Positions 7,395-36,244 of a stretch of DNA of 64,000 nt are shown here, piece after piece. Under the pieces are notes generated by a model. The model was not told the origin of the DNA. It saw only the letters and a program-made list of their open reading frames with translations, and ran no database searches. Source of the DNA: Dictyostelium discoideum (taxonomy: Eukaryota); assembly GCA_000004695.1 (NCBI GenBank), contig CM000151.3, positions 6,912,001-6,976,000 on the forward strand. The letters are read 5' to 3'. Position numbers and translations under genes: made by a program. Every line of letters starts with the position of its first letter. Within the stretch, counting starts at the first letter, position 1.

Positions 7395-8610
7395 TTAACC
7401 AACAATTTCAAATTCTGAAATTGATAAAGCTAAAGATCTTTGATTCTCTAATTCTGAAGTTATTGGTTGTTCAACTATTATATTTAAATTATTATCATCA
7501 TCATTATTCTTATTACTACTAAATAATGAATCCCATTTAAAAAATGACCAATATGAACTTTTATTATTGTTATTATTATTATTACTATTTACATTTACAT
7601 TTATTATATCATTTTCATTAATAAGATACTTTGGTTGTTGTTGTAGTTGTTGTTGTTGTAGTTGCAGTTGTTGTTGCAGTTGTTGTTCGATTAATTTATT
7701 TTTTTTACCAATAAAACCACCATGTAATGATTGAAAATCGGTTAATAATTTTAAAATATTTTGATTTTTAGTTCTACTGATTGTATGTTGTGAAAAACCT
7801 TCAGTTCTATTTTGACAAAGAAATTTTACAATTTCATAATGACCATTTTCAACAGCCATTGAAATTGCATTTTTTGTACAACCCTCTGCTCTATTCTCAT
7901 GTAAAAACTTAACTACTTCTAAATGACCATATTGGGCTGACAAATCCATTGCATTAACAGTTGCACCTTCTTTTCTATTTTCATGTAAAAATTTTAAAAT
8001 CTCTAAATCACCATGACGTGCACTTAAATCAATTGATGATGTTGATGCATATCCTCTTTTATTATTATTATTATCATTGTTTTTAATTTTATTATTACTA
8101 TTTTCAATTTCATGTAAATATTTAACTTTTTCAAGGTCTCTTGAATCTACTGCATTGTCCAACACGAAAAACATTTTCTCCATTTCATCTCTTTTTAATG
8201 TGAATAATATTTTAAATAATTCACTATTATCTTTAAAACTAATCATTTTAAATATTAATCTATATGAACGAGTTGAAAAATCTAATTTAATTGTTGAATT
8301 ATTATTATTATAGTTTTTAAAAACTTTATCTTTTAATAATCCAATATTTTCACTTAAAATCATTGATTCAACAGATGTATAATCTTGATATTTCTTAAAT
8401 TGATAATTTCTATCAATGAATGTTATTTTATCTTTTTCCAAATTAATTTTATTGATTTCTTCTATTTTATTAATATTGCTTCTAGATTTCTTATTTTTAA
8501 TAGTCGATAATAAACAATTCCAATTTGAATTTTCACTTTTTAAAAATGTTGATATTATATTCCATAAATATTTATTACGAAAAACATAATAAAATAAATA
8601 ATCATTTGTA

Positions 8611-8669
<59 letters not shown>

Positions 8670-8681
8670 GATCATTGTCAT
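7395..8681 (-). CDS. Ankyrin-repeat protein with a poly-Asn N-terminus and a poly-Gln tract.
   Basis: Single 428-aa ORF. It has ANK units: DLSARHGDLEILKFLHENRKEGATVNAMDLSAQYGHLEVVKFLHENRAEGCTKNAISMAVENGHYEIVKFLCQNR. Confidence 0.75.
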
Positions 8682-8699
8682 ATTATAATAATAATAAAG

Positions 8700-8732
<33 letters not shown>

Positions 8733-8875
8733 TTTTTAAAATAAAAAAAATAACTATATTTTAAAAAAAACTATAAAGTAAATTATTTATTATTTTTTAT
8801 TTATTTTTTTAATAATTTATTATAAATGAGTTGTTTTTTTTTTTTATACATTTTTTTTCTGATTTATTTTTAATT

Positions 8876-8921
<46 letters not shown>

Positions 8922-9073
8922 AAAATTTTTAGATTAACCAGAATGTGGTGGTTTGCACCACACCTCAAAAACAGCTGTGCAAATAAATGTGTTAAATAAT
9001 TAATAGAGAAAAATAAATTTGACTCATCTATTTTTTATTTAAATTAAAGGTAAGAATAAATAAATAAATAAAT

Positions 9074-9114
<41 letters not shown>

Positions 9115-9412
9115 TATTTGGTATATTCTAGTTGATTTTTCTTTTTTTTTTTTTTTTTTTCTATTATTTGGTGTATGGAAAAAAAAAAAATCATATCCAG
9201 ATTTTTTTTTTTTTTTCTAATAAAAATATTTTTTGATCAGTAGATTTCTTTTTTTTTTCTTTCCTTTCGGAGTTTTTACTTTTTTTTATTTTTTTTTATT
9301 TTTTTTTTTTTTTTTTTATATTTTTTTTTTTTATTTTTTTTTTTTATTTTCTATATTTTATATTTGTTTCATTAATCTTTGTATTATTTCTTAATTTGGA
9401 TTTATCTAAAAA

Positions 9413-9651
9413 ATGAGTCGTCGTATGGGAGGAGGTATGCCAAAGATAAACTTATGTTTGTATCAAAGAATTATTGTAAAAAAAATAAAAAAAAATAAAT
9501 AAATAAAATTAATTAATAAATTAATTATTTACTTTAAAATTTTTTAGCTGGCGCTATTCCAAATAATAATACATCAACACCATCAACACCAACTTTAAGA
9601 AGTTCAGTATCTGTATCATCAAGCAACAGCAGAGGTTTATTTTTAGCCTAG
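9413..9651 (+). CDS. Small two-exon peptide gene X1, 48 aa: MSRRMGGGMPKINL|S|GAIPNNNTSTPSTPTLRSSVSVSSSNSRGLFLA*.
   Basis: Exon 1 is 9413-9455 and ends at donor GTTTGT. The intron is 9456-9547 with acceptor TTTTTAG. Exon 2 is 9548-9651. Both splice sites and the phase are conserved in the diverged paralogue at 10516. Alternative: an unspliced read-through gives a 31-aa ORF. Confidence 0.4.
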
Positions 9652-9993
9652 ATTTTTTTTTAAAAAAAAAAAAAAGTAAAATAAAATAGTCACTTGACTG
9701 TTCACACAAGCTTTATTTTTCTTTATTTTTCTTTATTTTTCATTATTTCCTCATTTTTAAATTACAACAACTATATATTTTTTTTTTTTTTTTAAAATTC
9801 CTTTTTCCTAAAGCCAATGGTTATTTTTTTTTTCTGATGTAAAAGTTTTTTTTTGAACCTTTCTTGTTTGAAACGGTGAATTGATTTTTTTAATTTTTTT
9901 TTTTAATTTTATTTTTTTTTTACAAAAATATCTTTTATTATTCTTTTTTTCACTAAAATCAATTTAACCACTTTTTTTTAAATATCAATAATC

Positions 9994-10051
9994 ATGTAAA
10001 GTTTATCATCTCTATTTAAAACAGGTAATGGTGATAACAAACTAGGAGCAG
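9994..10051 (+). pseudogene. Decayed copy of W-type exon 1. The start codon is followed directly by a stop (ATG TAA).
   Basis: atcATGTAAagtttatcatctctatttaaaacaggtaatggtgataacaaactaggagcag|gtatgatt here, versus the intact attATGGAGagtttatcaagtttatctaaaaccggtaatggtaataacaaactaggaggag|gtatgatt at 11091. Confidence 0.45.
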
Positions 10052-10123
10052 GTATGATTGTTTATTTATTTTTTATTTTATTTTTTTTATTATTTTATTG
10101 ATAAACATATAGGAAAAAAAACA

Positions 10124-10343
10124 ATGATTAAAATTCCAACAGGAAGAAAAAATAAACAATCAGGTAAGATTTATTTTATTAATTTTAAATTTTTTTTTTT
10201 TATAAAAATATTAATTTGGATTTGTATTCAAATTAGTTACAAATGGTCAAGTTATAAATAATGTTTGTAGACGCAACAAGCTCGCCAACAGGGGGATATC
10301 ACAAACTTGGATTATCTATTTGGAAATCAAAATTCATTTTTAA
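10124..10343 (+). pseudogene. Y-type copy Y1, frameshifted. Exon 1 MIKIPTGRKNKQS is intact. Exon 2 reads VTNGQVINNVCRRNKLANRGISQTWIIYLEIKIHF*, out of frame relative to its paralogues.
   Basis: Exon 1 is 10124-10163 with donor GTAAGATTT. Acceptor is aaattag at 10236. Exon 2 aligns with Y3 and Y4 for the first 4 aa, then indels shift the frame (aatgtttgtagacgcaacaagctcgcc versus aatgtttttggcaccaaatgcaacaaactcacc). Confidence 0.4.
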
Positions 10344-10357
10344 AATATATTCAAAAA

Positions 10358-10392
10358 ATGAAATTGCATGGTGGAAGATGTAAAATATTGGA
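10358..10392 (+). pseudogene. Z-type copy Z1. Exon 1 has an inactivated 5' splice donor (GT to AT).
   Basis: Here ATGAAATTGCATGGTGGAAGATGTAAAATATTGG|ATAAGAATT. The intact copy at 14042 is ATGCAATTACATAGTGGAAGAAATAAAACTTTGG|GTAAGAATT. Confidence 0.4.
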
Positions 10393-10515
10393 TAAGAATT
10401 TTTCTAATAATATTTTTTAATATTTATCCCAACAGATTTCTTTTTTTTTTTTTTCCATATTGTTTTAGTTTCATTAATCTTTGTAATATTTCTTTATTTG
10501 CATTTACCAAAAAAA

Positions 10516-10736
10516 TGATTCATGGTGTGGAGGGGGAATGCCCAAAGATTAACTTAAGTTTGTATCAAAGAATAATTTTTTAAAAAAAAAAAAAAAAAAA
10601 AAATTATCCACTGTAAAAATTTTTAGCTGGCGCTGTTACAATTAATAAACACTACTTTAAATTCAGTATCTGTATCATTAAGCAACAGCAGAGGTTTTTT
10701 AACTTTTTTTTTTATTGTTTTTTATTTTTAGCCTAG
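10516..10736 (+). pseudogene. Diverged X-type paralogue X2. The ORF is still open (MIHGVEGECPKINL|T|GAVTINKHYFKFSICIIKQQQRFFNFFFYCFLFLA*) but an internal deletion has removed the Ser/Thr-rich core. Functional status unclear.
   Basis: Exon 1 is 10516-10557 with donor GTTTGT. Exon 2 is 10627-10736, ending GCC TAG. The splice sites and phase match X1. Confidence 0.3.
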
Positions 10737-11090
10737 ATTTTTTAAAAAAAAAAGTAAAAAAAAAAAATAAAAAATAGTTGTTCACAAACTTTATATTTCA
10801 TTATTTGAAAATGAAAACACCAACCTTATATGTATTTATTTTTTTTTTTTTTTTAAAAAAAAATTCCTTTTTTCTAAAGCTAATGGTTGGCTATTTTTTT
10901 TTTTTTTTTTATCTTGTTAAATAGATTTTTTTTTTGTTTTTTTTTGTTTTTTTTTGTTTTTTTTTTTTTTTTTTTTTTTTTTTTGATTAAAAATATCTTT
11001 TTTTTTTTGTTTTTTTTTTTTTTTTTAATATTTTTTTTTATTATTTTTTCACTAAAACCAATCCAATCACTTTTTTTAATATCAATAATT

Positions 11091-11158
11091 ATGGAGAGTT
11101 TATCAAGTTTATCTAAAACCGGTAATGGTAATAACAAACTAGGAGGAGGTATGATTAT

Positions 11159-11196
<38 letters not shown>

Positions 11197-11329
11197 GTGA
11201 AACTAATAAAAAAAAAAAAAAAATTAAAGTAGGATATACATTTTTACAAAAACCACAAAATGTTTCATCACCTACAGCAAGACCCTCAACTCCTCAACCA
11301 GGTGCAGGGAAAGGTATATTTTTAGCATA
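11091..11329 (+). CDS. Small two-exon peptide gene W2, 52 aa: MESLSSLSKTGNGNNKLGG|V|GYTFLQKPQNVSSPTARPSTPQPGAGKGIFLA*.
   Basis: Exon 1 is 11091-11148 with donor GTATGA. The intron is 11149-11228 with acceptor ttaaag. Exon 2 is 11229-11329 and ends TTA GCA TAA. The GIFLA* end parallels GLFLA* of X1. Confidence 0.45.
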
Positions 11330-11713
11330 ATCAAATAAAAATAAACAGTCAAAATTTGGGCTATTCAATCCATTACTTTATTTTTTTTATTTTTTTTTTT
11401 TTTTTATTTTTATTTTTTTTTTTTTTTTTTTTGATTACCCCATTTGATTTCTTATTTTTTTCAAACTGCTCTTAAAAACCACACAACCCAAAACCTTTCG
11501 GCAAAATAAATTAAAAACAGTGTTTTTTTTTTTAAAAAGTTCTGTTTTGAAATGAAATCCAATTTTATTTTTTTATTTTTTTTGATATTATTTTGACCTT
11601 TGGATAAAATTTTTTATTTTTTTTTTTTTTTTTTTTATTTTTTTTTTTTTATTTTTTTTTTTTGTTTAATTTTTATTTTTTTTTTATTTTTTATTTTATT
11701 GTTAAAAGTATAG

Positions 11714-11950
11714 AAAAAAAAAAGGGATAGTGTTTGGTTAGGAGGAAAAAACAAACAATCAGGTAAGATTTATTTTTTTTTTTTTTTTTATTTTTTTTTA
11801 TTTTTTTATTTTTTTTTATTTTATTCTTAAACTTGTATTCAAATTAGTTGCAAATGGTCCAGGTAAAGCAATGTTTTTGGCACCAAATGCAACAAACTCA
11901 CCAACAGTGGGATATAGCCCAAGAATTTTAAGCTACACACCTGGATTCAA
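11714..11950 (+). pseudogene. Y-type copy Y3. It has no in-frame start codon in its first exon: ..KKKRDSVWLGGKNKQS|G|VANGPGKAMFLAPNATNSPTVGYSPRILSYTPGFKP*. Either a pseudogene or an internal exon with an undetected upstream exon.
   Basis: The in-frame TAG at 11711-11713 is the tatag acceptor-like site. Donor is caatcag|gtaagattt at 11762/11763. Exon 2 begins after caaattag at about 11836 and ends CCT TAA. Confidence 0.35.
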
Positions 11951-12751
11951 ACCTTAAAAAAAATAAAAAAAAAAAAAAAAAAAAGATTTTTTAATTTAAA
12001 ATAAAATTAAACATATATAAACAATTGGGTATTTTTTTTTTTTTTTTAAAATTAAAGATATAATACTTTTTTCAACAATAACTTAATTTTGTTTGTTTTT
12101 TTTTTTAAAAAAAAAAAATTGATTATTTACTTTTTTATTTTTTTTTTTTTTGTTTTTTATTAAAAAAATAATATAACAAAATTAAATAAAGTAATTATAA
12201 CTAATAAATATTGTAAATAATTAGGTTTATTATTTATATCATTCTTTAACCAGGTGTGTATTTTTAGAAACCTGTAAATTTCCTGGTTCCCACACCATGA
12301 TAGATTTAAACTAAATTTGGGAAATAGAAAAATTGAAATTTAACGCAAATAAACAGATCAACTTTTTTATTTATTTTATTTTTTTTTTTTCAACCAACTT
12401 ACAATTTTTATAATTTTTTTTTTTTTTTTTTATTCACCCAATCATGATTACTTAAAACCTCGAAAAAAAAAACGGTATATTCCCAAATTTATTTTTTTAT
12501 TTTTTTTTTATTGTTTTTAAATTGTCTGTTTGGAAATGAAAAATCAATTTTTTTTAAAATAAAAAATAATTTAAACAATCAATTTTCAAATAATATTTTT
12601 TTTATTTTTTTTATTTTTTTTTTTTTTTTTTTTTTTTTTTGATATTTCTTGTACAAATGATATTTAATATATTTTTCTTTATCTTTCTTAATTATTTTAT
12701 TTTTTCCTAATCCAAGTGTCTGAAATATATTAAAAAAAATGAATCATGGGT

Positions 12752-12783
<32 letters not shown>

Positions 12784-13104
12784 TTGCCCCAATTTGATTC
12801 AGTTCTCCTTCATCTATTAAGTTTTGGTATTCAAAAACAAAGTTTTAAAGTATTAAAAGGAAATTTGAAAGTTTTTTTATTTCTTTCAAAATAAAATTAA
12901 TTTTTTAAAATTAAAATGGTTTTTTTTTTATAAAAAATTTTGTTTTGAACCGAAATCCAATTTTATTTTTTTATTTTTTTATTTTTTTATTATTTTTTGA
13001 TATTATTTTATTTTCGTGACTTTTGGATAAAAATTTTTTTTTTTTTTTTTTTTTTTCTTTCATTTTTAATTTTTTTTTTATTTTTAATCTTATAGGAAAA
13101 AACA

Positions 13105-13342
13105 ATGATGATATTTGATTCTTTTTTAGGAGGAAAAAACAAACAAAGTAAGATTTATTTTTATTATTTTTTTTTAAATTTTTATTTTTTTTTATTTTTA
13201 TTTTTATATATATATATATTAATTTAAATTTGTTTTTAAATTAGCTCTAAGTGGTCCAGTTAAAACAACGTTTTTGGCACCAACCACAACAAGCTCACCA
13301 ACAGTGGGAATTGTAAATGGTACAGTTGGATTTAGACCTTAA
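13105..13342 (+). CDS. Small two-exon peptide gene Y4, 46 aa: MMIFDSFLGGKNKQ|T|LSGPVKTTFLAPTTTSSPTVGIVNGTVGFRP*.
   Basis: Exon 1 is 13105-13147 with donor GTAAGATTT. The intron is 13148-13244 with acceptor aaattag. Exon 2 is 13245-13342 and ends AGA CCT TAA. The exon 2 core (FLAP..T..SPTVG) is conserved with Y3. Confidence 0.45.
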
Positions 13343-14041
13343 AATAAAAAAAAAATAAAAAAAAAAAAAAAAAAACAAAAAAAAAATTTATTATTTAATT
13401 TAAAATAAATAAAAATTATAAAGCTTTTACTTTTTTGTTGAAAAAAAAAAAGAACAGTATCTTTAAAATTTTCTTCAACCAGATGTGTATTTTTAGAAAC
13501 CTTTAAATTTCCTGGTTCCCACACCATGGTAGATCTGTACAAAATTTGGAAAATGGAAAAATTAAAATTAAACACAAATAAAAAATGAATAAACAGCCAA
13601 TCTTTTTTATTGACTTAATTTTTATTTTTTTAAATTTTTTTTTTTTATTTTTGCTACCAACTGATAATTGTTTTAATTTAGTTTTTTTTAAATTTTTTTT
13701 TTTTTTTTTTTCATTCACCTCACCATGATTATTTAAAACCTCGAAAAAAAAAAAAAATGACTCTTCGGTATATTCTCAAATTTATTTTTTTATTGTTTTT
13801 AAATTGTCTGTTTAGAAACGAAAAATTAATTTTTAAAAACAATAAAAAAAAAAATCCAAGCAATCAGTTTTCGATTATAATTATTATTATTTTTTTATTT
13901 TTTTTTTGAAATTTTTTGAAAATGACGTTTAAAATGTTTTTTATTTAAAGAATTGTTTTTTTTTTTTTTCTTTTTATTTTTATTTTTCTTTATTTTTTAA
14001 ATCATTTTTTTCTAGGCAAGTGTTTGAAATATTTTCAAAAA

Positions 14042-14243
14042 ATGCAATTACATAGTGGAAGAAATAAAACTTTGGGTAAGAATTTTTTTTTTTTTTTTTT
14101 TTTTTTTTTATTATTTCTTTTAAAATTAACATTCTAATAACCTATTAGCATCAGATTTCACTGCTAGTGGGATGTATCTTATTTCAAGACCAAAAGGTAC
14201 AGTAGGACCTCCAATTTTTAGCAACTATTCTTTTAGTTATTAA
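14042..14243 (+). CDS. Small two-exon peptide gene Z, 42 aa: MQLHSGRNKTL|A|SDFTASGMYLISRPKGTVGPPIFSNYSFSY*.
   Basis: Exon 1 is 14042-14075 with donor GTAAGAATT. The intron is 14076-14148 with acceptor cctattag. Exon 2 is 14149-14243 and ends TAT TAA. Confidence 0.4.
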
Positions 14244-15823
14244 AAACTATTCCAATCAATCAAAAAATCCTTTTTTTAAAAATTGTTAAAAGACTTAAAA
14301 AATTAAAATATTTTAATATTTTTATTAAATTAATTAGTATTCTATTTTTAACAATAGTGTATTTTTTTTTGTTCTTTTTATTTTTTTTTTTTTTTTTTTT
14401 TTTTATTTTTTTTTTTTTTTTGAACACCAGGTCGAGTTTGATTTTTAGTGGAGTTACTTTTTTTTTTAACATATCAGATTAAGATATTATCATTTTTCCA
14501 GAATTTTTAGTAGTGTTATTTTTTTCAGCATTTTTTGGCCATTGGAGAAGAGCACATTAATTCGGACAATGCTCAAATTAATTTGTATTTGTTTTATTTT
14601 CCAACCATCCTCTAATTTGAGTAGGGCAGATTTATTTTCAATCTAGAGTTTGAATGGGTTTAAACTGGATGACCATTAAACATATAGTTAAATTCCATTT
14701 ATAACTGGAAATTTTAGTTGATTTTTATGGGTTTCTTAAAAAAAAAAAAAAAAATTTTAAAAAACAAAATAAACAAATAAAAAATAAATTCAAATCCAAC
14801 TTAATTATTTTTAACTAAATTAATAAAAATGAATTTAAATAAATTGGGTCTCATAATTTTATGATTTACTATTATTTATATTATTATATCTATTCATATC
14901 TTTTTTTTAAATAAAATTATCTATTTAATTTTTATCTAATTAAATTTTCAGGTGTTATTGTTCGGGTTCAAAAATCAAAAAGTAAATATAATAAAATAAT
15001 TGGAAAAAAAAAAAAAAAAATTATAAATCAGGTTTTCTTGGAGATACTCATTTTCATTAGTTGGATGGGGTTATTATTATTTTTTTATTTCTCAGCTTTA
15101 TTTGTTCAATTTTTAATATATTGTTGCAATCAATCCATATAACCATTTATTTCAACTGCATCACAGGCAATACATAGTTGAAAAATATAATATGATGTGT
15201 TTAAATATTTTTTTTTTTTTTTCACATTAATATTTTCTTTTAAAAATAATTAAATAAAAAACTATTTTTTATACCTTAGTAGAAGTTCAAATAATTTTTT
15301 TTTTTAATGTCCATGGTTTGGGTGATATAAATTTTGGAAATAATGTATGATTTTAGGTAAGGATGAAAAGGCAAATAATCAAGTAATTTATTATTTTTTT
15401 TAAAAAATTTAATTTATTTTTTTCCAAAAATTGGCTAGCAACGATATTAAAAAAAAAAATAAAAAAAAAATAAAAAAAAAAAAAAAAATAAAAAAAAAAG
15501 ATCAGTTTCAATTGTTTAAAATATCTTAACAAAAAAAGGTGGGAAAAATTTTAAAGTGGAAAAAAAATTTTATAATAAAAAAAAACCCTTTTCTAAAATA
15601 TCTTTTTTTTTTTTTTCATAATTAAGTTTTTTAAGTGGTATTGCAATTAAAGATTGAATAATAATGCTTTTTGTTATTAATTTTTTTTTCGAGTTCAATG
15701 ATTTTTTTGCAAACATCAATCAATGGAATTCGGTTTTCTTTATTATTATTATTATTTTTTTTTTTTTTATTAATCTTTTTTTTTTTTAATTTTTTTTTTT
15801 TCTAAGTTTTTTTTTTTTTTTAT

Positions 15824-15854
<31 letters not shown>

Positions 15855-15900
15855 ATTATTAGTTAATTATTCCTTAATAAATAAAACAAGTCTTAAAAAA

Positions 15901-16681
15901 ATGAATAAAATTTTATCATTATTTTTAATAACCATATTATTAATTTCAAAAGTTATGTCATCAAGCGAAGAATGTAAACTTTGTACTGATTTTATGTATG
16001 ACTCATTAAATGAACTTATTGAAATTGCCATTAGTATGTTTATAAATATATAAATTAATTATTTAATTCCCTATTTATTTTTTTTATTTACTAATTTAAA
16101 TTTTTTTTTTTTAATAATAAATAAAATAATAATATTAAATTTTAGATGGTGGAGTTATTGGTAGTTGTGGTGCTCTTTGTAATAAATTAGGTATTGCTCC
16201 TTTATGTATGGTATGTGCTATTGCCTGTGATGCAGTTGGAATTAATGGTTTTATGGATTTATTACAAGATGTTTTCCCAGATCCAATTTACATTTGTGAA
16301 AGTGTTAAAATGTGTCAATACAATGATAAAGCAAATGCAACTATTACTGAAGTTGTAATTAATCCAATGAGTGGAAATGTAGGTGACACTTTCAAAATTG
16401 GTGTATCATTTAATGTAACCAACACTATTGCAACTGGAGAAATTTTATGGAATGTTGTTGACCCAAGAGGTTTCCAATTTGGTGAAACTGAAGTTATAAT
16501 TGATGCTGCTCCTTCAATTTACGGTGCCGCTTTCAGTTTCCAAGCAACTCCTTCTGAACAAGAAGAATTCCCACCAGGTGAATACCAATTACAAATGCAA
16601 ATTTGTGAAGGTACCTGCGGTTCACCACATCCACATTCTTATATTTTATCAAATCAATATTTAAATTTCACCATTATATAA
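15901..16681 (+). CDS. Secreted Cys-rich saposin-like protein, possibly countin-like, about 222 aa in 2 exons.
   Basis: Exon 1 is 15901-16033: MNKILSLFLITILLISKVMSSSEECKLCTDFMYDSLNELIEIAI. It has a signal peptide and CxxC, and ends at donor GTATGT. The intron is 16034-16145. Exon 2 is 16146-16681: N GGVIGSCGALCNKLGIAPLCMVCAIACDAVGINGFMDLLQDVFPDPIYICESVKMCQYND.... The six-Cys spacing is saposin-B-like. The countin assignment is from memory of the family only. Confidence 0.65.
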
Positions 16682-23161: not shown

Positions 23162-24262
23162 ATGAAAAAATTAAAAATATTGATTTTAATTTTTAATTTA
23201 TTAATTTTATCAATAAATTGTATTCCAATAATGAATTGTAATGATTCAAAACAATGTAACAATTTAAAAAATTGTAAAAAATCTTTTATAGATATTTTCA
23301 CAAATTCACCATCACTATCATCATCATCACCATCATCATTACCACAATATATGAATAATAATAATAATTCTAATATTGGCAAAATGATAATTGACAAAGA
23401 AAAAAAAACAATAATTTTTCAAGCATCATATGATAATGAAAGTGTTTATAGAATTCTTTCAATTCCAACCAAGGGTGGTTCATCAACAATTAATAATGTT
23501 AATACAATCGCAAAATTATCAAAAAATATAACAAATAATTTTTTTATTTCATATAAAAATCAAAATGAATTTTTTATTTACTATGAAAATTGTTTAAAAA
23601 AAGTTTCCAATTTTATTTTAGATTCAAATTGTTTTTATAGTAATAATAATAATAATATTACAGATAATAATAATGATATATATTCAATTACATTTGATGA
23701 TCAAGGAATATTTGGATACTATTATTCACCAATATATTCATCAATTATTCAATACCCAACAAATAAAATTCTTTATAAAGGTGGTAATGGTACAAACCAA
23801 ATTAGAATTTTAGATAAATTAATATTTTTTAAAATTGGTCATAATATTTATTTTGGGGATTTAAATAATTTATTTATAAATTCTACAAATAATAATAATA
23901 ATATTACAAATAATTTTAATCAATCATCAATTAATAATAATAATAACATTAAAAATGTTTTACAATTACCAATTTTCTATTCAAATAAGAATATGTATGA
24001 ATTTGATATATCATCAAGTCATTTCTATTATAGTGATTGGTTTGAAAAAAGAATTTATAGATATCCAATTAGAAATGGTATAATTGATCAAACATTTAAA
24101 CAAATGATATTTTATTATCTACCAATTTCATTTCATTATTTTAATAATTATTTATATCTTTCATTTCCAAATATTTATTCAATTAATTTAAATTCAAAAA
24201 ATGTAGAATTTCAGTTAACTGACCATTTTATTCAATCAAATTATTATTGTATAGATAAATAA
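23162..24262 (+). CDS. Hypothetical Asn-rich protein of 366 aa with a signal-peptide-like N-terminus.
   Basis: MKKLKILILIFNLLILSINCIPIMNCNDSKQCNNLKNCKK.... It is a single ORF with AT-rich codon usage typical of the genome and no recognised domain. Confidence 0.5.
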   Translation: MKKLKILILIFNLLILSINCIPIMNCNDSKQCNNLKNCKKSFIDIFTNSPSLSSSSPSSLPQYMNNNNNSNIGKMIIDKEKKTIIFQASYDNESVYRILSIPTKGGSSTINNVNTIAKLSKNITNNFFISYKNQNEFFIYYENCLKKVSNFILDSNCFYSNNNNNITDNNNDIYSITFDDQGIFGYYYSPIYSSIIQYPTNKILYKGGNGTNQIRILDKLIFFKIGHNIYFGDLNNLFINSTNNNNNITNNFNQSSINNNNNIKNVLQLPIFYSNKNMYEFDISSSHFYYSDWFEKRIYRYPIRNGIIDQTFKQMIFYYLPISFHYFNNYLYLSFPNIYSINLNSKNVEFQLTDHFIQSNYYCIDK

Positions 24263-24607: not shown

Positions 24608-26022
24608 TTAATTAGTAGTTTGAGGAATTGAATTATCAACTGGAATTGAATTTTCAATTTTAGCAGAAGAATCAACTTTTGAAAGGTTTGGAGTTGAAGA
24701 TTCAACGGGTTTTTTAAAAATATAATCTGGTTTTACACAATCAGCAGGAAGATTTGGATTATGAATGAAATAGTGTGGTTTATGAATGAAATTTGGATCC
24801 TTTGCCAAATTTACTTTTGCTTTCTTTCTTTGAAGATCTTCGATTCTTTGTTTTTCAAGACCAGCCTTTCTACTATCTTTCTTTGCGAAACCCTCAGCAA
24901 CACCTTTCCAAACCTTTTGAGAAGCATTCTCTTTTAATTGTTCCATTGGTTCCTCGATGACTGGTTCAGAACGCATGGTATTGTAATTTATAAAGACACC
25001 AGATGTTTTATCTTTGAGATTAGTGATGGTAAGTATATCAACATGAGTACCATGAATATCATAGATTGGTTCGGTACCTTTGCTAACTATGATTTGAAGA
25101 TCGTGCCATTTGCCACCAATGATTGGTTTGTCCTTGAAATTGATGACTGCGCTATAGCCAGTTTCTGGACAAACAAAATTATATTTACCAGTGAATTCAA
25201 ATTTCCATCTCAAAAGACGAAGATAACCCTCTGTGAATTTATCGTTGAAATAGGTCTCGGTGACACCACCCTCTCTCTCCAATGTGATACAAGTCTTTAC
25301 ATCCATATTGACACGAATACATTTACCCTTGAATACTGGTGTGATTTGTTGTTTTGAATCAAATTTGATCTTATGTTTATCATTGTAAAAGTTAAAACAT
25401 GAAATTGGTGGATGATGTGAAATTTGTTCGGCTGTGAAATGTGTAATATCACCTTGAATCACCTCATTGGTCTTCTCATCTGTATGTTGAACTTGACATT
25501 CATAAACTTCTCCTAAAATTGGATTCAATGGATTCTTTGGGAAATACATCTTTGGCCATGTTAAATGATATTTTAAAACTTGTAAAAATCTTTGATCATC
25601 TTCTTTAATATATGGTGCACTATTTAAAATTTTAAAATTTTAAAAAATTAATATAAAATGAAAAAAATAAAAAAATAAAAAAAAATAAAAAAGTAATATA
25701 TATATATAAATTACCTTGTTAATAAATGTGAAAAAATTGCTGATTGTTGTTGAATTGCTGTTAAGAAACTAATTGGTTGTACAAATGTTGCTGGAATTGG
25801 TAATTTAGTCATATCTGCACCAACTTTAAGATGATTCTTAATGAATCCAAATGCTTGTTTCATAACACCTGCCTCTGTGGCTGGTTCAGAATCAATCATT
25901 GCATCAGCTCCACTATTTTCAGTTTGATCAACTCCTTCAGCTTCAACGCCATCACTTGAAAGATCACTAACACTATCTTCTGTTAATGGTGCTTCTTTAT
26001 TGCTTGCTACTTTTGCTGACAT
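24608..26022 (-). CDS. Oxysterol-binding protein (OSBP/ORP) family member, short form of about 440 aa in 2 exons.
   Basis: Exon 1 is 25715-26022 (MSAKVASNKEAPLTEDS...SAIFSHLLT) with donor GTAATT. The intron is 25620-25714 with acceptor AAATAG. Exon 2 is 24608-25619 (S APYIKEDDQRFLQVLKYHLTWPKMYFPK...). It has the OSBP fingerprint EQISHHPPIS. Confidence 0.85.
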
Positions 26023-36161: not shown

Positions 36162-36244
36162 TGCAAGAGGCGAGATTCGAACTCGCGAACCGAATGGATG
36201 AGATCTTAAGTCACACGGATTTAACCAGACTTTCCTACCCTTGC
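36162..36244 (-). tRNA. tRNA-Leu, anticodon UAA, a class II tRNA with a long variable arm.
   Basis: Minus strand: GCAAGGG TA GGAAAGTCTGGTTAAATCC G TGTGA CTTAAGA TCTCA TCCATTCGGTTC GCGAG TTCGAAT CTCGC CTCTTGC A. The acceptor stem is 7 bp with one G-U. The T arm is GCGAG/CTCGC with the TTCGAAT loop. The anticodon loop CTTAAGA puts TAA at positions 34-36. There is one mismatch in the anticodon stem. Confidence 0.7.

Follow-up and report, generated by a model that had tools for sequence, protein, structure and literature searches.

A cluster of about 5 kb on chromosome 2 of Dictyostelium discoideum AX4 comprises ten copies of very small, two-exon genes, four of them intact and six broken. To judge from its sequence, it is plausibly a tandem array of tiny, lineage-specific genes that encode proteins and are in birth-and-death turnover, a reading to which we give a probability of roughly 0.55. 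The cluster occupies positions 9.3-14.3 kb of a stretch of 64,000 nucleotides (nt), hereafter the window (positions 6,912,001 to 6,976,000 of contig CM000151.3, assembly GCA_000004695.1), which has a G+C content of about 20%. The observation itself is real, and far from what chance would produce. The mini-genes belong to four types, called X, Z, Y and Q, and exactly one intact gene is left per type. The four intact genes are the following (aa, amino acids):

Exon 1 9413-9455, intron 9456-9547, exon 2 9548-9651, plus strand: X1, intact, 48 aa, the same as DDB_G0276433; codon score 1.02 bits/codon.
Exon 1 11091-11148, intron 11149-11232, exon 2 11233-11330 (or from 11230), plus strand: Z, intact, 51 or 52 aa; not in the protein collection, three versions tried.
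Exon 1 13105-13147, intron 13148-13244, exon 2 13245-13342, plus strand: Y4, intact, 46 aa; not in the protein collection.
Exon 1 14042-14075, intron 14076-14148, exon 2 14149-14243, plus strand: Q, intact, 42 aa; not in the protein collection.

Models were built by listing every GT..AG intron located 3' of each candidate ATG. The four junctions named in the original prediction (9455/9548, 11148/11230 or 11233, 13147/13245 and 14075/14149) are all of the GT..AG type with open frames, and the sizes quoted there were reproduced by the intron enumeration, the coding part of exon 1 measuring 34-58 nt, exon 2 95-104 nt, and the intron 73-97 nt. All introns are in phase 1, so that the phase is indeed kept across paralogues, and A+T content ranges from 88 to 96% across the introns tabulated. 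The donor is GTAAGA in Y, in Q and in the decayed copy W described below, and GTATGA in Z. The 200 nt preceding the starts are 56-72% T, and the 60 nt following the stops 38-77% A. Starts are set in an A-rich context, and AATAAA is found at most 30 nt after four of five stops. The amino- and carboxy-terminal ends of the peptides, and the core FLAP..SPTVG of the Y type, were all found as quoted. Start context, phase-1 introns, T-rich upstream and A-rich downstream flanks, AATAAA signals and the codon periodicity reported below make up a gene-like anatomy, as had been claimed. X1 has an alternative donor at 9435 (GGAGGAG|GTATG, similar to that of Z), 21 nt upstream of the annotated one, which retains phase 1 and would yield a product of 41 aa. 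The intron of Z is open in frame, and the unspliced open reading frame (ORF) encodes 79 aa, starting with MESL and carrying a poly-Lys insert; this version also is absent from the protein collection.

X1 matches, in all residues and in exon structure, the hypothetical protein DDB_G0276433 (EAL69170 / XP_643132 / UniProt Q86HW0). The UniProt record defines it a 'putative uncharacterized protein', a lone orphan prediction forming a cluster of one. Eighteen alternative models of X1, Z, Y4, Q, W and the decayed X2, plus a minus-strand ORF, were searched by exact look-up in a collection of 15 billion proteins, and the 48-aa X1 alone is present. The family had been regarded as undescribed. This is not so for X1, which is already annotated, but holds for the intact Z, Y4 and Q models, missing from the collection, and the genes are uncharacterised. 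No description of the paralogous array was found in the literature searched.

The coding character of the cluster was assessed by a blind two-exon finder, run on both strands of the window (128 kb). The finder looked for an ATG, an exon-1 ORF of 10-70 nt, a GTAA or GTAT donor, an intron of 60-130 nt with at least 85% A+T, an [AT]AG acceptor, and an exon 2 of 80-140 nt ending in a stop. Models were scored by a codon log-likelihood, for which the long ORFs of the window served as training set. Of the 21 models obtained, those reaching at least 15 bits are confined to X1, Z, Y4 and Q. A score of 4-11 was calculated for the decayed W and of 2.7 for the best model elsewhere, and no such locus was found in 300 replicates (0/300) of a third-order Markov null of the region. 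The structures are thus beyond what is expected of chance ORFs in AT-rich DNA, and on this point the claim of gene-like structures is borne out. The in-frame codon score is 0.47-1.02 bits/codon, to be compared with 0.86-0.99 in held-out real ORFs, and the other two sense frames score negative or close to zero. Pooled GC content at codon positions 1, 2 and 3 is 0.37, 0.55 and 0.17, versus 0.36, 0.33 and 0.14 in long ORFs; introns have 8% GC. CCA, ACA, TCA and TTA are preferred as in real genes, and the Gly codon GGA is used more than in real genes.

Paralogous segments were defined by blastn with default scoring, since +1/-1 scoring led to long spurious alignments, and the default repeat finder was swamped by T/A tracts. 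The region 9333-10065 matches 10436-11162 (about 83% in blocks), 10058-10299 matches both 11658-11915 and 13040-13273, 11508-12623 matches 12908-13907 (76-88%), and 10339-10403 matches 14023-14087 (85%). The cluster had been described as four copies of one unit of 1.0-1.35 kb. The blastn matches do not sustain this layout, and probably reflect some three partial copies of an X-Z-Y-Q array instead. According to the alignments, copy I (9333-10430) contains the intact X1, a Z remnant, W and a remnant of Q, which is reduced to exon 1 and mutated at the donor. X2 with its frameshifting indels, the intact Z, Y3, two non-coding islands and what is left of a degraded Q exon 1 are found in copy II (10436 to about 12760), and the intact Y4, both islands and the intact Q in copy III (about 12830-14250). 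W had been taken as a type of its own, and turned out in the alignment to be a frameshifted Y copy. Intact and decayed paralogues lie side by side in the alignments, in agreement with what had been proposed. The six disabled copies are listed below.

9994-10065, plus strand: Z remnant; ATG is followed by TAA (stop at codon 2), donor GTATGATT retained, exon 2 deleted; 84% identical to Z exon 1; detected by tblastn as M*SLSSLFKTGNGDNKLGAG.
10124-10343, plus strand: W, a decayed Y; ATG, GTAAGA donor and TTAG acceptor retained, Y frame broken by deletions in exon 2; 0.39 bits/codon; from the Y3/Y4/W alignment.
10358-10403, plus strand: first Q remnant; exon 1 alone, donor changed from GGTAAG to GATAAG, followed by X2 upstream sequence.
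10515-10736, plus strand: X2, a decayed X; exon 2 with deletions of 16 nt and 4 nt and an insertion of 26 nt; GTATG donor lost.
11738-11957, plus strand: Y3; no ATG, in-frame TAG upstream; intron 11763-11847; exon 2 (11848-11957) open for 36 codons.
12731-12750, plus strand: second Q remnant; degraded exon-1 fragment at the junction of copies II and III, from the alignments.

The truncated Q copies end within the T-rich Q intron and, as far as the weak junction evidence goes, may therefore have arisen dead through duplication breakpoints. No further copies were detected outside 9.3-14.3 kb on either strand of the window, by blastn or tblastn. One apparent extra family member was discarded, the match (25928-26008) lying on the antisense strand of a real exon.

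Alignment of the paralogues reveals that the first 20 nt of the introns are 90-95% identical and the last 20 nt 75-80%; in the gap-rich intron interiors identity drops to 46-57%. Two features argue for constraint. Y3 and Y4 differ by two indels, of 12 nt and 3 nt, and both are in frame. Moreover, the four types cannot be aligned as DNA, yet each carries a start codon and both splice signals, shares the intron phase and has exon 2 open, and this in a cluster in which six of ten copies have been disabled among much younger duplications (about 17-24% divergence).

The predicted peptides measure 42-51 residues, have a net charge of +3 to +5, are rich in Ser, Gly, Thr, Pro and Asn, and contain no Cys in 187 pooled residues. 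They feature several (S/T)P sites, a short hydrophobic tail and no signal peptide. Segments of the four predicted products are INLSGAIPNNNTSTPSTPTLR in X1, TTFLAPTTTSSPTVGIVNGTVGFRP in Y4, TLASDFTASGMYLISRPK in Q and PQNVSSPTARPSTPQPGAGK in Z. AlphaFold2 models X1 as a coil devoid of secondary structure (predicted template modelling score, pTM, 0.14), and the peptides look intrinsically disordered. The suggestion that they resemble secreted signals is unsupported, given the lack of a signal peptide and the predicted coil of X1; having no signal peptide, the products would be cytosolic or nuclear rather than secreted. The SDF-1 precursor was considered as a candidate and rejected, as no RRxS/T site, the criterion taken from the SDF-1 literature, was seen by inspection. 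Y3 and Y4 peptides are clearly related (z = 17.9, local alignment versus shuffled sequences). No match to X1, Z, Y4, Q or Y3 was found in Pfam at E up to 10, transposon domains included, and metagenome scans with the Y core and X1 exon 2 retrieved nothing. A word-indexed protein search with Y4 and with a concatenate of the peptides also gave nothing, but missed the record of X1 itself, and is uninformative for sequences of this size; the gene-position index likewise has no entry for X1.

Non-coding elements accompany the mini-genes. A short upstream motif and two islands are repeated in the array:

11543-11557, plus strand: shared upstream motif TGTTTNGAAAYGAAA, some 130-230 nt 5' of Y-, Q- and Z-type starts; good copies at 11543, 12527, 12941 and 13809, weaker ones at 9865, 10317 and 10802.
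12242-12353, no strand assigned: island 1; paralogue at 13471-13582, 5' of the intact Q; 88% by blastn, 78% over a wider block.
12405-12623, no strand assigned: island 2; paralogue at 13685-13907, 5' of the intact Q; 80%; upstream motif at 12527-12541 / 13809-13823.

On the plus strand of the window the motif has four matches with no mismatch or one, all in the cluster, 160-230 nt 5' of Y- or Q-type starts. Its weaker copies precede Z-type starts or, at 10317, lie 41 nt before the Q exon-1 remnant of copy I. The only other match with one mismatch is on the minus strand, at 24159, and at two mismatches there is no enrichment window-wide (14 found, 15 expected). Island 1, situated 380-570 nt 5' of Q-type starts, is non-coding and is the best-conserved block of the array. 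It includes an inverted pair GGTGTGT ... CCCACACC and a 7-bp inverted repeat, AACCAGG/CCTGGTT. A small RNA was considered and rejected: Rfam gave no match at E up to 1 over 8500-15500, and folding of both strands of both island copies, compared with shuffled sequences, gave z values of -0.19 to +0.63. Island 1 is accordingly more likely a DNA element than an RNA, and may be a GT/CA-rich regulatory element. GT/CA-rich boxes are typical targets of the developmental factor GBF, which provides a lead rather than a test. The sequence TCCCACAC of island 1 presumably resembles the upstream element of non-coding RNA genes. Further CA-rich elements, TTCACACAAGC (9697-9706, in the spacer 3' of X1) and ACCACACAACCCAAAACC (11478-11495, in the spacer 5' of Y3), are rare G+C-containing islands within DNA that otherwise consists of A/T only.

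The cluster resides in a gap of about 7.4 kb (8682-16138), between an ankyrin-repeat gene (7395-8681, minus strand) and the next substantial gene (16139-16678, plus strand). The sole gene annotated in the gap is one of 48 aa. The gap is unusually long given the compact genome, and was counted in favour of the coding reading. The downstream neighbour (15826-16050 and 16139-16678, plus strand) appears to start with an exon resembling a signal peptide (MNKILSLFLITILLISKVMSSSEECKLC...), followed by a Cys-rich ORF which has no Pfam match and looks, by eye, saposin-like. DDB_G0276509, at 23162-24262, is the second gene identified in the window. The single RNA gene found in the window by ARAGORN and Rfam is a tRNA-Leu(UAA) gene (36162-36244, minus strand), 22 kb from the cluster. 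DDB_G0276435, found in one expression table, has no bearing on the cluster, since DDB_G numbers are not positional.

Several observations weigh against the existence of functional protein-coding genes at this site. HMMER searches of 1.84 billion representative proteins with X1 recovered no true homologue, only X1 itself and one artefact. The artefact, a 1443-residue repeat protein, is not a homologue, its score being the sum of 19 weak matches to a GNNSSTPT-type repeat. DDB_G0276433 was not found in the searchable full text or supplements of Dictyostelium transcriptome, proteome and annotation papers, weak negative evidence because supplement tables are possibly partial. Logan is missing from the X1 record, as is the second D. 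discoideum accession (KAM...) carried by a neighbouring gene. The annotated donor of X1, GTTTGT, is weak and non-consensus. X1, Z, Y4 and Q are paralogues, and hence are not independent evidence. The antisense frames of Y4 exon 2 (13222-13338, minus strand) and Q exon 2 (14129-14224, minus strand) are stop-free and score 0.45-0.69 bits/codon, not less than the sense frames; the blind finder found no start or splice signals, and no minus-strand gene model, at these frames. Between types, peptide similarity is marginal for the pairs X1-Z, X1-Y4, Z-Y4 and Y3-Q (p 0.02-0.06, local alignment versus shuffled sequences), and is not significant for other pairs; weak motifs, xFLxP..(S/N)SPT and G(L/I)FLA, are shared among types. 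The notion of one peptide family would thus rest on the common architecture and adjacency, and not on peptide similarity beyond these values. A common origin of the four types would be supported by identical architecture, adjacency, weak shared motifs and the upstream element.

Conservation speaks on the same side. Exon bodies are 58-84% identical, not above the 60 nt 5' of the ATG (65-82%), the first 20 nt of the introns (90-95%) or island 1 (78-88%). The claim that splice sites and exons are conserved while introns diverge is therefore correct for splice sites, intron ends and intron interiors, but not for exons, which are no better conserved than their surroundings. Y3 and Y4 changes at codon positions 1, 2 and 3 number 6, 10 and 4; the third position changes least, a neutral pattern with no purifying signal. 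Ratios of non-synonymous to synonymous substitution rates (dN/dS), calculated according to Nei-Gojobori, each on 4-20 substitutions, are as follows:

Y3/Y4 exon 2: 1.5.
Y3/W exon 1: 0.8.
Z exon-1 pair: 0.7.
X exon-1 pair: 0.55.
Q exon-1 pair: 0.46.

The dN/dS comparison of Y3/Y4 and X1/X2 had been indicated in the original prediction as a check, and values of 0.5-1.5 overall formally go against it. The comparison is unfair, because each comparable pair has a dead copy, and the ratio cannot separate sequences which were never coding from pairs in which one copy was released from constraint.

In the main rival explanation, which we judge possible but clearly less probable than the array of coding genes, the copies would be drifting relics of an ORF unit, formerly or never functional, spread by segmental duplication; those called intact would simply not be disabled yet, and DDB_G0276433 would be an unsupported ab initio prediction. 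The death of six of ten copies, dN/dS values around 1, exons no better conserved than the surroundings, the lack of homologues anywhere and of expression or proteome records in the literature searched are all as expected of relics. The truncated Q copies point in the same direction, as they were perhaps dead from birth, which weakens the argument drawn from one intact copy per type. Relics do not easily account for the types, which are far more diverged than the recent copies and have nonetheless each preserved an A-rich start context with its ATG, both splice sites, the phase of the intron, and 30-36 open codons in exon 2. Both the periodicity and the choice of codons are those usual in coding sequence, and neither the finder nor the null provided any comparable model by chance.

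It is unlikely that the units are spliced non-coding RNA genes, whose short ORFs would mean nothing and which would act through the RNA or through being transcribed. Conservation that peaks at splice signals and in the 5' leader, and not in exon bodies, the lack of protein-level constraint and the openness of antisense frames would suit such genes. They are at odds with the strong 3-nt periodicity in GC content, the single sense frame scoring as coding, the in-frame indels, the A-rich start context and the A-rich tails after the stops; moreover, the tested region showed neither an Rfam match nor a folding signal.

The array of tiny genes calls to mind the sigN/hssA/2C/7E family. This includes at least 96 genes, and encodes Ser-, Cys- and Gly-rich products of 87-93 aa with few Lys and Arg (PMC2257962, Vicente et al. 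2008). Genes of the family consist of two exons separated by a phase-1 intron of about 110 nt, the ORF of exon 1 measuring 13 nt; those studied are grouped in tandem on chromosome 2, show prestalk expression from 10 h, and have no homologues in other organisms (PMC2257962). The mini-genes are similar in having two exons, a phase-1 intron of about 100 nt after a very short exon-1 ORF, diverged paralogues arranged in tandem on chromosome 2, and small low-complexity products restricted to dictyostelids, without homologues in other organisms. They differ in the size of the products (42-51 versus 87-93 aa) and of the exon-1 ORF (34-58 versus 13 nt), and in composition, the cluster peptides being basic, without Cys, and Ser/Gly/Thr/Pro/Asn-rich, those of sigN Ser/Cys/Gly-rich with few Lys and Arg. 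We take the amino-terminus of Z, MESLSSLSKTGN, to resemble the start MT(I/L)xxSISSxxN of the hssA/sigN family. That the mini-genes are highly diverged members of this family, identified by PF05710 ('Coiled'), is suggested by the shared gene plan and by the location in tandem clusters on chromosome 2, and is nonetheless disfavoured and very improbable. PF05710 gave no match up to E 10 with X1, Z, Y4, Q and Y3, and detected the positive control P0005 of D. dimigraforme at 68 bits (E 1.3e-18). BLASTP of Z against P0005 revealed no similarity (E 99), and the cluster peptides are half as long, and Pro/Thr-rich rather than Cys/Gly-rich. The cluster has the gene plan of sigN, but does not belong to PF05710, and the claim that its peptides fall outside known families, hssA/2C/7E included, has held.

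The weakest alternative, fragments of a dispersed repeat or mobile element, is hardly credible: the region is internally repetitive and lies in AT-rich low-complexity DNA, but no copy occurs elsewhere on either strand of the window, where the sole apparent one is the antisense match mentioned above, the peptides have no transposon domain, the only tRNA gene of the window is 22 kb away, and one unit has been annotated as a gene and not repeat-masked.

If the cluster is indeed an array of coding genes, its history may be sketched as follows. In the ancestral mini-gene a T-rich promoter, with an element of the TGTTTNGAAAYG type, would have preceded a start in A-rich context; a short exon 1 and an exon 2 of about 100 nt would have been separated by a phase-1 intron of about 75-100 nt, and the 3' end would have been rich in A. 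The ancestor would have diversified into the four types X, Z, Y and Q, and the resulting array would have been partly duplicated twice, probably by unequal exchange in the long T/A tracts, with breakpoints apparently within the Q intron. Redundant copies would then have decayed, leaving X1, Z, Y4 and Q as the intact representatives. A more specific proposal, held tentatively and as rather doubtful, is that the four genes are transcribed, spliced and translated into a previously unrecognised family of basic, disordered micropeptides restricted to D. discoideum and carrying (S/T)P phosphorylation sites, that one copy per type is maintained by selection, and that the GT/CA-rich islands and the upstream motif might co-regulate expression, multicellular development being one example. 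Anatomy, coding-like statistics, paralogy and decay are what the sequence shows; transcription, splicing, translation, co-regulation and any function of the peptides are inferred.

The cluster shares with orphan micropeptide birth-and-death clusters tandem duplication, fast pseudogenisation, the lack of detectable homologues, and disordered, low-complexity products. Placing it among them may be warranted as a description, the cluster being known here from its sequence alone. Single knockouts of six small-protein genes of the hssA/sigN class had no developmental phenotype (PMC8554618), and expectations for so tiny a cluster are tempered accordingly. In the main, the finding is a local and modest improvement of the annotation, of a kind familiar to specialists; many small orphan genes of this architecture, grouped in large families, are already known in Dictyostelium. 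If the genes are real, three tiny ones would be missing from the queried protein sets of a heavily used model organism. The cluster would then represent a compact natural case of very small lineage-specific genes arising, duplicating and dying, in which intact and dead copies of each type, set side by side, would be handy for testing selection on micropeptides.

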